Program-made: the position numbers
Assembly (NCBI RefSeq): GCF_022846255.1
Contig: NZ_AP025682.1
From: Escherichia coli
GTDB lineage: Bacteria; Pseudomonadota; Gammaproteobacteria; Enterobacterales; Enterobacteriaceae
Direction: 5' to 3' (one strand)
DNA length: 64,000 nucleotides
Shown here: one piece after another, positions 49,501 through 52,500 of the stretch
Layout of the letters: the number at the start of each line of letters is the position of its first letter
Position numbering within the stretch: position 1 is the first letter of the stretch

Positions 49501-52500
49501 GACCTGTTTATCCTTCGCATACTTCACGCCACGATAATCTTGGTCGATGATGTACCAGTCCGGGAAGCCCTGCGCCCGGTACAGTTCACGCGGCTGTAAC
49601 ATGCGCATACCAATATCAACAATGCGATACGTCACGCCATCGATCACCACCAGCCCGGTACAATCCTCGCCACAGTATTTACGCAGGAACGACAGCGTTT
49701 GTTGCGCGCGTTCTTCGTCGTACTCATCTACGGCAAGATGGGTTTCAACGTTCCCTACATGCAGGCCACCAGCCGTGACAGTCGGCATTGGCGCGTCGGT
49801 GCGTTGTCCATCCCGGCAGGTTCCGCGCAATTTAACCAGGTGAGAAGCAACCACAGCATGGTGATCGACGGTGGTCACAGAATGCATCGGCTCATCCATC
49901 CCCACTTCGGCAATAAACCGGTAAAGGTGTTCGCGATAAAGGTGAATATCAATGACTAAATCAGCAGCAGAAAGCAAAAGAATTTTTAGGTACAATCAAA
50001 ATCACTTTTTGTTGTTAACTATTTGATGAACTACAAGGATAAGATCATGTATCAGCAAATCATTTTTGAAGAAGGAAAAGAACCAAGAGTGCACACAAGC
50101 CACCAAGACATCAAGACATCAAGACATCAAGACATCAAGACATCAAGACATCAAGTCTATCGAAATAAGTGATAACAGTGGAAAAGTTCAAGAGATTTCG
50201 GTTATGGAGTTCAAGGATACCAGAGGAGATGTTTTTTATGCTTACAACTATGCTTATTCTGGTAAAAAACCATCAAATGACGAAATCTATAAGGCTATTG
50301 ATGAGCTAAAGCCAATCGGTGAAAAATTCGAAATGTCTAAGACTATAAGCGATTAGATAAATCTGTTTTCAACATTGCAGCAAAATCATAGGAAGAACGC
50401 GACAAAGTTAACATGCTATCGCGAACAGTCGTTAACATCACCTAAAGTCAGCGAATCGCGATACATGGAAATGTCTGGGAAGAACGCCAAGAAGTAAGCG
50501 CAATTTGAACAAATGCGAACCCGCCGAGTGCGGGTTTTCTTTTATCTGAACTCGCTACGGCGGGTTTTGTTTTATGGAGACAAGAAATGTCAGATTTGGC
50601 TATGAAGGTTTTGAAATGGCAATCGACTGGCGATGTTGGCATCAGTAGCGCAACTCTTGCCTCAATCGCATGTGGACTGAAAAAGAATATCTATGGTCAT
50701 AGCTTCGGTGCTCCACATGACGCAGCCGATTTCCGACGATGCGTTGCGCTTGTCGAGCAGATTCCAGAAATCAGGGATTCATTCGACAAGGTTGCAAAGC
50801 GCGTTCCGGCATTCAAAGGCATCCTCAACGAATGGGATTCTCTCGTTGCTCTGTTGAAGTCTGAAATGAAGATACACGGAAACAAAGCACCAGAGACTTA
50901 CAGAAGAATTAGCGAGTTACGCAAGGACTAACCACAGCCTCACACTCGATGAGGCCCGTTCATTTCTCAAGATATCCAGACCTACCATTGCCGCATCAAT
51001 GCGGCTTTTCTTGCGTGTAATTGCGGAGACTTTGCGATGTACTTGACACTTCAGGAGTGGAACGCACGCCAGCGACGCCCAAGAAGCCTTGAAACAGTTC
51101 GTCGATGGGTGCGCGAATGCAGGATATTCCCTCCTCCGGTTAAGGATGGAAGAGAGTATCTGTTCCACGAATCAGCGGTAAAGGTTGACTTAAATCGACC
51201 AGTAACAGGTAGCCTTTTGAAGAGGATCAGAAATGGGAAGAAGGCGAAGTCATGAGCGCCGGGATTTACCCCCTAACCTTTATATAAGAAACAATGGATA
51301 TTACTGCTACAGGGACCCAAGGACGGGTAAAGAGTTCGGATTAGGCAGAGACAGGAGGATAGCAATTACTGAAGCAATACAGGCCAATATTGAGTTACTC
51401 TCAGACAGCGGACGCAAATCACTAATAGACAGAATTAAAGGCGGTGACGCAATCACTCTTCATGTGTGGCTTGACCGATATGAAACAATCCTCACCGAAA
51501 GGGGGATCAGGCCGAAAACTCTACTCGACTACGCCAGCAAAATCAGGGCAATCCGAAGAAAATTGCCGGACAAACCGCTCACTGACATATCAACGAAAGA
51601 AGTGGCAGCAATGCTAAACACCTACGTAGCAGAAGGTAAAGCAGCTTCCGCAAAATTAATCAGGTCAACCCTTGTTGACGTTTTTCGTGAAGCAATAGCC
51701 GAGGGGCATGTGGCAACGAATCCGGTAACAGCAACCCGTACAGCAAAGTCAGAAGTAAGGCGCTCAAGGCTGACAGCTAATGAGTATGTCGAGATTTACC
51801 ATGCAGCCGAACCTCTCCCTATCTGGCTAAGGCTGGCGATGGATTTGGCCGTCGTTACAGGGCAGAGAGTCGGCGATTTGTGCAGAATGAAATGGTCAGA
51901 CATAAACGACAACCATCTTCACATTGAACAGAGTAAAACAGGGGCTAAACTCGCCATTCCGCTAACGCTAACGATTGACGCGCTCAATATCTCATTGGCT
52001 GATACACTACAGAAATGCAGGGAGGCCAGCAGCAGTGAAACTATAATCGCATCAAAGCATCACGATCCGCTTTCCCCGAAAACAGTATCAAAGTATTTTA
52101 CAAAGGCGAGAAATGCATCTGGACTCTCATTTGATGGAAACCCGCCAACATTCCATGAACTGCGTAGCCTGTCAGCGAGGCTATACCGGAACCAGATTGG
52201 CGATAAGTTTGCTCAACGTCTTCTCGGGCATAAATCAGACTCAATGGCGGCGCGGTATAGGGACAGCCGTGGACGGGAATGGGACAAAATTGAAATCGAC
52301 AAATGATTTTATTTTGACTAATAATGACCTGCCTACATTAATTCATTGATAATAAAAGAGATTTTAAATATACAACTTATTCACCTAAAGTGCACCGACC
52401 GTGAATTTAACCCTGACCCGAAGACTCTGGATGGGCTTTGCCCTGATGGCGCTGTTAACCCTGACCAGTACCCTGGTGGGATGGTACAACCTGCGCTTTA

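Follow-up and report, generated by a model that had tools for sequence, protein, structure and literature searches.

The 64-kb stretch of Escherichia coli DNA analysed here (the window) contains a lambdoid prophage inserted between torT and torS. The junction next to torS is the attL (B-O-P') of this prophage, which carries an HK022-type integrase and occupies the 21-bp torT-torS attB. The effect of a prophage at torS has been worked out experimentally (Carey et al. 2019, eLife 8:e49081; PMC6814406), and the phage-promoter mechanism described there very probably applies in the window strain as well, with the consequences for expression predicted by analogy to HK022. The junction arrangement, the mechanism and its prevalence are already known from that work (PMC6814406). 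The window adds a further natural lysogen, in which the P' arm deviates slightly, the phage body and cargo are different, and stx is missing.

Attachment site and prophage structure

The window has two exact copies of an 11-bp core, TTCACCTAAAG, at 3302..3312 and 52380..52390. The copies are 49,078 bp apart and the lambdoid prophage lies between them, inside the 82-bp torT-torS intergenic region (Table 1). The 11-bp repeat was identified by reading both junctions; a repeat search with the two flanks as separate regions returned chance repeats only. The initial annotation had placed an 18-bp att core at 52373..52390, which is longer than the duplication. Only 11 bp are repeated, and a search of the window with a covering 22-mer, allowing up to three mismatches, gave no second copy of the 18-bp sequence. 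At the torS side the identity between attP and attB is 52380..52390, while 52373..52379 is the phage-specific C' half-site.

When 3150..3312 is joined to 52391..52499, the result matches unoccupied torT-torS loci at 100% identity, and the TTCACCTAAAG pair is no chance repeat. At least 80% of the joined flanks is present in 5217 of the 5426 complete E. coli genomes, and the rebuilt intergenic region differs from the 82-bp region of K-12 by a single base. In the unoccupied locus torT is the divergent partner of torS. HK022 uses a 21-bp attB of B-O-B' layout, in which the overlap takes up 7 bp (PMC7736782). The half-site symmetry of the window junctions agrees with a TTCACCT overlap, and the sequence by itself defines only the 11-bp identity. 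As in HK022, TTCACCT (AGGTGAA on the opposite strand) is presumably the site of strand exchange. Position 52387, in the B half-site of the core and beside the overlap, is polymorphic in published attL sequences (TTTAGG or TTAAGG on the opposite strand); the window has the K-12 and HK022 form.

Table 1. Positions of the torT-torS locus, the prophage and the regulatory sites in the window
Feature	Position	Strand	Description
torT	2212..3240	-	342 aa periplasmic TMAO-binding protein; Pfam Peripla_BP_1 E=4.7e-87; annotated torT under the rebuilt site
IscR type-2-like motif	3242..3266	+	ATAGCCTCATCAATAATAAGGCTTT; adjoins the torT ATG
torT-side junction core	3295..3315	+	B' (AACCTTT) - O (TTCACCT, 3302..3308) - C (AAAGGAT, phage); aligned to HK022 attP
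Lambdoid prophage	3313..52379	.	~49.1 kb
Phage P arm, HK022-type att	3316..3460	+	Aligns with the HK022 attP P arm, including the CAGTCACTAT arm-type site
xis	51037..51255	+	72 aa excisionase; PHROG 629, E=6e-23; position as HK022 xis
int	51233..52306	+	357 aa HK022-type heterobivalent tyrosine integrase; reads toward torS
Sigma-70-like site 1 toward torS	52296..52325	+	TCGACA-18-AATAAT, 10/12, best in scan; expected start ~52331..52333
Arm-type Int sites P'3 to P'1	~52301..52330	+	Putative
Phage P' arm	52307..52372	+	52307..52379 identical to HK022 at 68/73 positions; aligns with the lambda P' arm
Sigma-70-like site 2 toward torS	52324..52353	+	ATGACC-18-GATAAT
IHF H' motif	52339..52351	-	TATCAATGAATTA on the minus strand; putative
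torS-side junction core (attL)	52373..52393	+	C' (CAACTTA, phage) - O (TTCACCT, 52380..52386) - B (AAAGTGC, bacterial)
Native TSS2, inferred position	52397..52398	+	G52397/A52398, from the published text
torS (annotated)	52401..55133	+	GTG start, 910 aa; domain search and K-12 comparison

The prophage contains lambda-like structural genes, a CI-like repressor, a Q-like antiterminator, lysis genes, xis and int. The int product has the Pfam domains Arm-DNA-bind_1 (1e-28) and Phage_integrase (1.5e-41) as well as a SAM-like domain, and it is identical to HK022 Int at 346 of 357 positions (97%). The DNA upstream of the core was described as prophage sequence, and this holds: the DNA upstream of 52380 is phage, and 52200..52390 is 96.9% identical to HK022 int/attP, with differences at 6 of 191 positions. 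The same phage DNA was also called int-distal, which has to be reversed. It is int-proximal, since int reads toward torS and its stop codon (52304..52306) is 73 bp short of the torS-side junction.

The remainder of the prophage has several features of its own. The 98.7% match of the int/att region to Stx1a phages suggested a Stx phage, but Q and the holin are too close together for stx to fit. The gap between the Q-like antiterminator and the holin is only 365 bp (region 36180..37249); therefore the prophage is without stx. Just inside the torT-side att, 3767..7332 is a 3.7-kb module with an MFS transporter (-), an alpha/beta hydrolase (-) and a LysR regulator (+). Such metabolic-looking cargo is unusual in a lambdoid phage; some E. 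coli genomes, STEC299 among them, have the module at 97-99% identity. At 8218..9996 (+), close to the torT-side att, lies a gene for a protein of 592 aa, in which a kinase-like AAA_18 domain at the N-terminus is combined with a cytidine/dCMP deaminase domain. The PADLOC 'dCTPase' defence model hits this protein with E=5e-127, and the prophage probably carries the gene as anti-phage cargo of the dCTP-deaminase type. The torT-side cargo region as a whole (3313..10100) was not found at a coverage of at least 80% in any complete E. coli genome of the collection.

The torS gene and its start codon

TorS of the window is 97% identical to K-12 TorS, and sensor, HAMP, HisKA, HATPase, receiver and Hpt domains were found in it. 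The protein has 910 aa compared with 914 aa in K-12; it diverges only at the extreme C-terminus (55100..55133) and all of its domains are intact. RefSeq places the torS start at the same GTG both in K-12 and in one natural lysogen. Ten bases (52391..52400, TGCACCGACC) lie between the end of the att identity and this GTG, so the distance of 10 bp from the core reported in the initial annotation is correct when measured to 52390. As a distance to the start codon it depends on the GTG, which is the database start. In K-12 translational fusions, however, the torS GTG was inactive and an in-frame ATG, at 52431 in the window, was active (PMC6814406). The annotated GTG is probably not a functional start, and the ATG is 40 bp beyond the att identity. 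The published primer site CCGTGAATTTAACCCTGACCC corresponds to 52399..52419 of the window (PMC6814406).

Displacement of the native torS promoters

In non-lysogen DNA torS has two start sites, TSS1 and TSS2, of which TSS2 is at a G or an A at most 3 bp from the GTG, and an IscR site common to torS and torT represses both genes in air (PMC6814406). With HK022 in MG1655, the whole prophage lies between torS and both the IscR site and TSS1, and the promoter of TSS2 is destroyed (PMC6814406). The same displacement is present in the window: ~49 kb now separate torS from torT and from 72 of the 82 intergenic bp, which is the distance that the initial annotation gave for the native promoter elements shared with torT. 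A single match to AxxxCCxxAxxxxxxxTAxGGxxxT, the IscR type-2 pattern, is found in the 64-kb window (3242..3266), where 0.32 would be expected by chance. This motif is probably the shared IscR operator, kept with torT and 49 kb away from torS.

The -10 element of TSS2 is probably TAAAGT (52386..52391), which straddles the core and would survive the insertion. The -35 region, which we infer to be TTGCGA (3286..3291), would now be at the torT side. A torS promoter downstream of the core, which the initial annotation would have counted against its own reading, exists only in part: the native TSS2 does start past the core and ahead of the GTG, but the promoter that serves it reaches across the core and does not survive the insertion. 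With lysogen DNA the TSS2 transcript is absent in vitro, and both TSS1 and TSS2 are lost (PMC6814406). The native K-12 torT-torS intergenic region gave no promoter at the scan threshold, which is consistent with weak native promoters.

The core could also have been rebuilt into a hybrid promoter, in which the TAAAGT -10 is joined to a phage -35-like TTTAAA (52363..52368) and a TSS2-like start persists at 52397/52398. When read by eye, the two hexamers are spaced by 17 bp and each has 4/6 matches. However, the pair is below the threshold in the promoter scan, and a start 3 bp before the GTG leaves only 33 nt to the functional ATG. Together with the missing TSS2 transcript in lysogen DNA, this makes a hybrid promoter hardly credible.

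A candidate phage promoter for torS

The initial annotation implied that torS has lost its promoter. In that case torS would be without a usable promoter, TorS would be depleted, and TMAO sensing would be reduced or lost. The removal or disabling of both native torS starts (PMC6814406) and the 49-kb displacement of most of the intergenic region speak for this possibility, but it was tested and rejected for HK022. In the HK022 lysogen torS-lacZ is raised and torT is unchanged, anaerobic induction of torCAD is normal, and a phage sigma-70 promoter lies in the ~200 bp upstream of torS (PMC6814406). The HK022 promoter-like sites are kept in the window, and a torS gene left without a promoter is very unlikely in this strain.

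Transcription from the phage side of the junction is instead the preferred reading. A terminator cassette at attL abolished torS expression (PMC6814406). In vitro, sigma-70 holoenzyme produced a single start on a fragment from -231 to +28 of the torS ATG, and this start was inside the prophage (PMC6814406). The published fragment corresponds to 52200..52458 of the window. The HK022/torS authors recognised no clear -10 or -35 at the phage start site (PMC6814406).

A consensus scan of the window for promoter-like sites found two that point toward torS (Table 1), and the identical pair is present in HK022. Site 1 may be the published phage promoter, with hexamers that are predicted from the sequence. 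The P' arm of the window has five substitutions relative to HK022 (52331, 52333, 52344, 52346 and 52354), all of them downstream of the candidate -10. The hexamers of site 1 are invariant in 12 published attL haplotypes, and variation starts at 52330. The haplotypes were from Supplementary file 2 of PMC6814406; its rows contain an additional A that neither AF069308 nor the window has, and this base was taken as a text-extraction artefact and removed before comparison. The invariant hexamers and the variation from 52330 agree with the published high conservation upstream of the phage start site (PMC6814406). The C-terminus of Int and the arm-type Int sites would account for the conservation of 52296..52330 just as well, so conservation by itself is no proof of a promoter.

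The candidate promoters overlap sites that are likely to serve recombination. The -10 of site 1 overlaps the putative Int arm sites P'1/P'2, and the -10 of site 2 overlaps the putative IHF H' site. The names P'3-P'1 and H' follow the arrangement of lambda attP and are tentative in the window. Among the prophages at the torS site, substitutions cluster at 52330..52354, from P'1 to the IHF H' site and just past the invariant hexamers.

If the phage promoter that drives torS overlaps the recombination sites, occupancy of attL by IHF or Int could modulate torS, and the polymorphisms at 52330..52354 could tune its expression between lineages. Such an effect is conceivable from the positions of the sites, but it is unlikely.

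Transcripts that start deeper in the prophage could also reach torS, either from the int promoter or from pL after induction, and be its main source. The two genes int and torS are co-oriented, and the scan found no terminator-like site between them. In lambda-type phages the int terminator/sib element spans attP, and it is parted from int in the prophage. The effect of the terminator insertion at attL fits either source. However, int is repressed in lysogens, and the -231 fragment gives a defined sigma-70 transcript in vitro without the int promoter, which according to the authors is not needed for torS transcription (PMC6814406). Read-through as the main source of torS transcription is therefore improbable, though read-through from int may add to it on induction. 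An Rfam scan of 51900..52700 found no structured RNA at E<=1.

Predicted effect on TMAO respiration

In the HK022 lysogen the excess of TorS over TorT dephosphorylates TorR (PMC6814406). As a result torCAD is silent aerobically, with normal anaerobic induction; supplying extra TorT rescues it, and the bet-hedging subpopulation seen in air disappears (PMC6814406). The wild lysogen NRG 857C behaves likewise (PMC6814406). The expectation in the initial annotation that torS expression and TMAO sensing would be altered is thus borne out in part for HK022 in MG1655 and for NRG 857C. The control of torS and torCAD does change, but anaerobic sensing is intact, and TMAO sensing is lost only aerobically, through the excess of TorS over TorT (PMC6814406). 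The authors also caution that other prophages or hosts may act differently (PMC6814406).

Applied to the window, the phage-promoter mechanism would begin with the insertion of the lambdoid prophage at the 21-bp torT-torS attB by its HK022-type integrase. This would displace the TSS1 promoter and the shared IscR operator 49 kb from torS, and would break the proximal TSS2 promoter, which had its -35 region on the other side of the core. Transcription of torS would then come from a sigma-70 promoter in the 3' end of int and the P' arm, for which TCGACA-18-AATAAT of site 1 is the candidate. By analogy with HK022, torS would be IscR-independent and over-expressed while torT would be unchanged. The surplus of TorT-free TorS would act as a TorR phosphatase, so torCAD would be off in air; it would remain TMAO-inducible without oxygen, and the aerobic bet-hedging subpopulation would be gone.

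The prophage would in this way rewire host signalling in cis: the promoter of a sensor kinase is swapped, its oxygen (IscR) control is removed, and the timing of TMAO respiration is changed. The junction may be of use for strain-level prediction of phenotype. If the window strain follows HK022, its aerobic TMAO respiration is probably off.

Comparison with known systems

The attL of lambda (gal-side, B-O-P'-int) shares several features with the torS-side junction, including int reading toward att, P'1-P'3 and IHF H' in the P' arm, and the CAACTTA half-site. It differs in the overlap and the bacterial site, and it has TCAAAT/GATAGT where the window has TCGACA/AATAAT. To our knowledge, no outward host-gene promoter has been described for lambda attL.

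The closest experimentally studied case is the HK022 attL at torS in MG1655. It shares with the window the attB and the 11-bp identity, and attL occupies the same place with respect to torS. In both prophages int is the last gene, reads outward and has its stop codon 73 bp from the junction. The phage bodies are different mosaics (40.75 kb in HK022 and 49.1 kb in the window), and that of the window has lambda-like structural genes and extra cargo.

The natural prophages at torS-torT have an HK022-type int/att module at the same site as in the window. These include the prophages of NRG 857C and LF82 ('Gally'), the Stx1a phages of O26:H11 and O103:H2, and H19J. With the int-att module of the window, those of the Stx1a phages LC744180 and LC744179 share 98.7% identity, and that of H19J shares 98.6%. 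The attL of strain 266917_2 differs from the window by one core base only, and the tested arm of NRG 857C differs at 4 positions. The int-attL-torS junction was found at a coverage of at least 80% in 193 of 5426 complete E. coli genomes (3.6%); the torS-torT site was reported to be occupied in ~5% of genomes (PMC6814406). The torS-torT site is a recognised site for Stx1a phages and for Gally of LF82, and the promoter argument has already been made for Gally.
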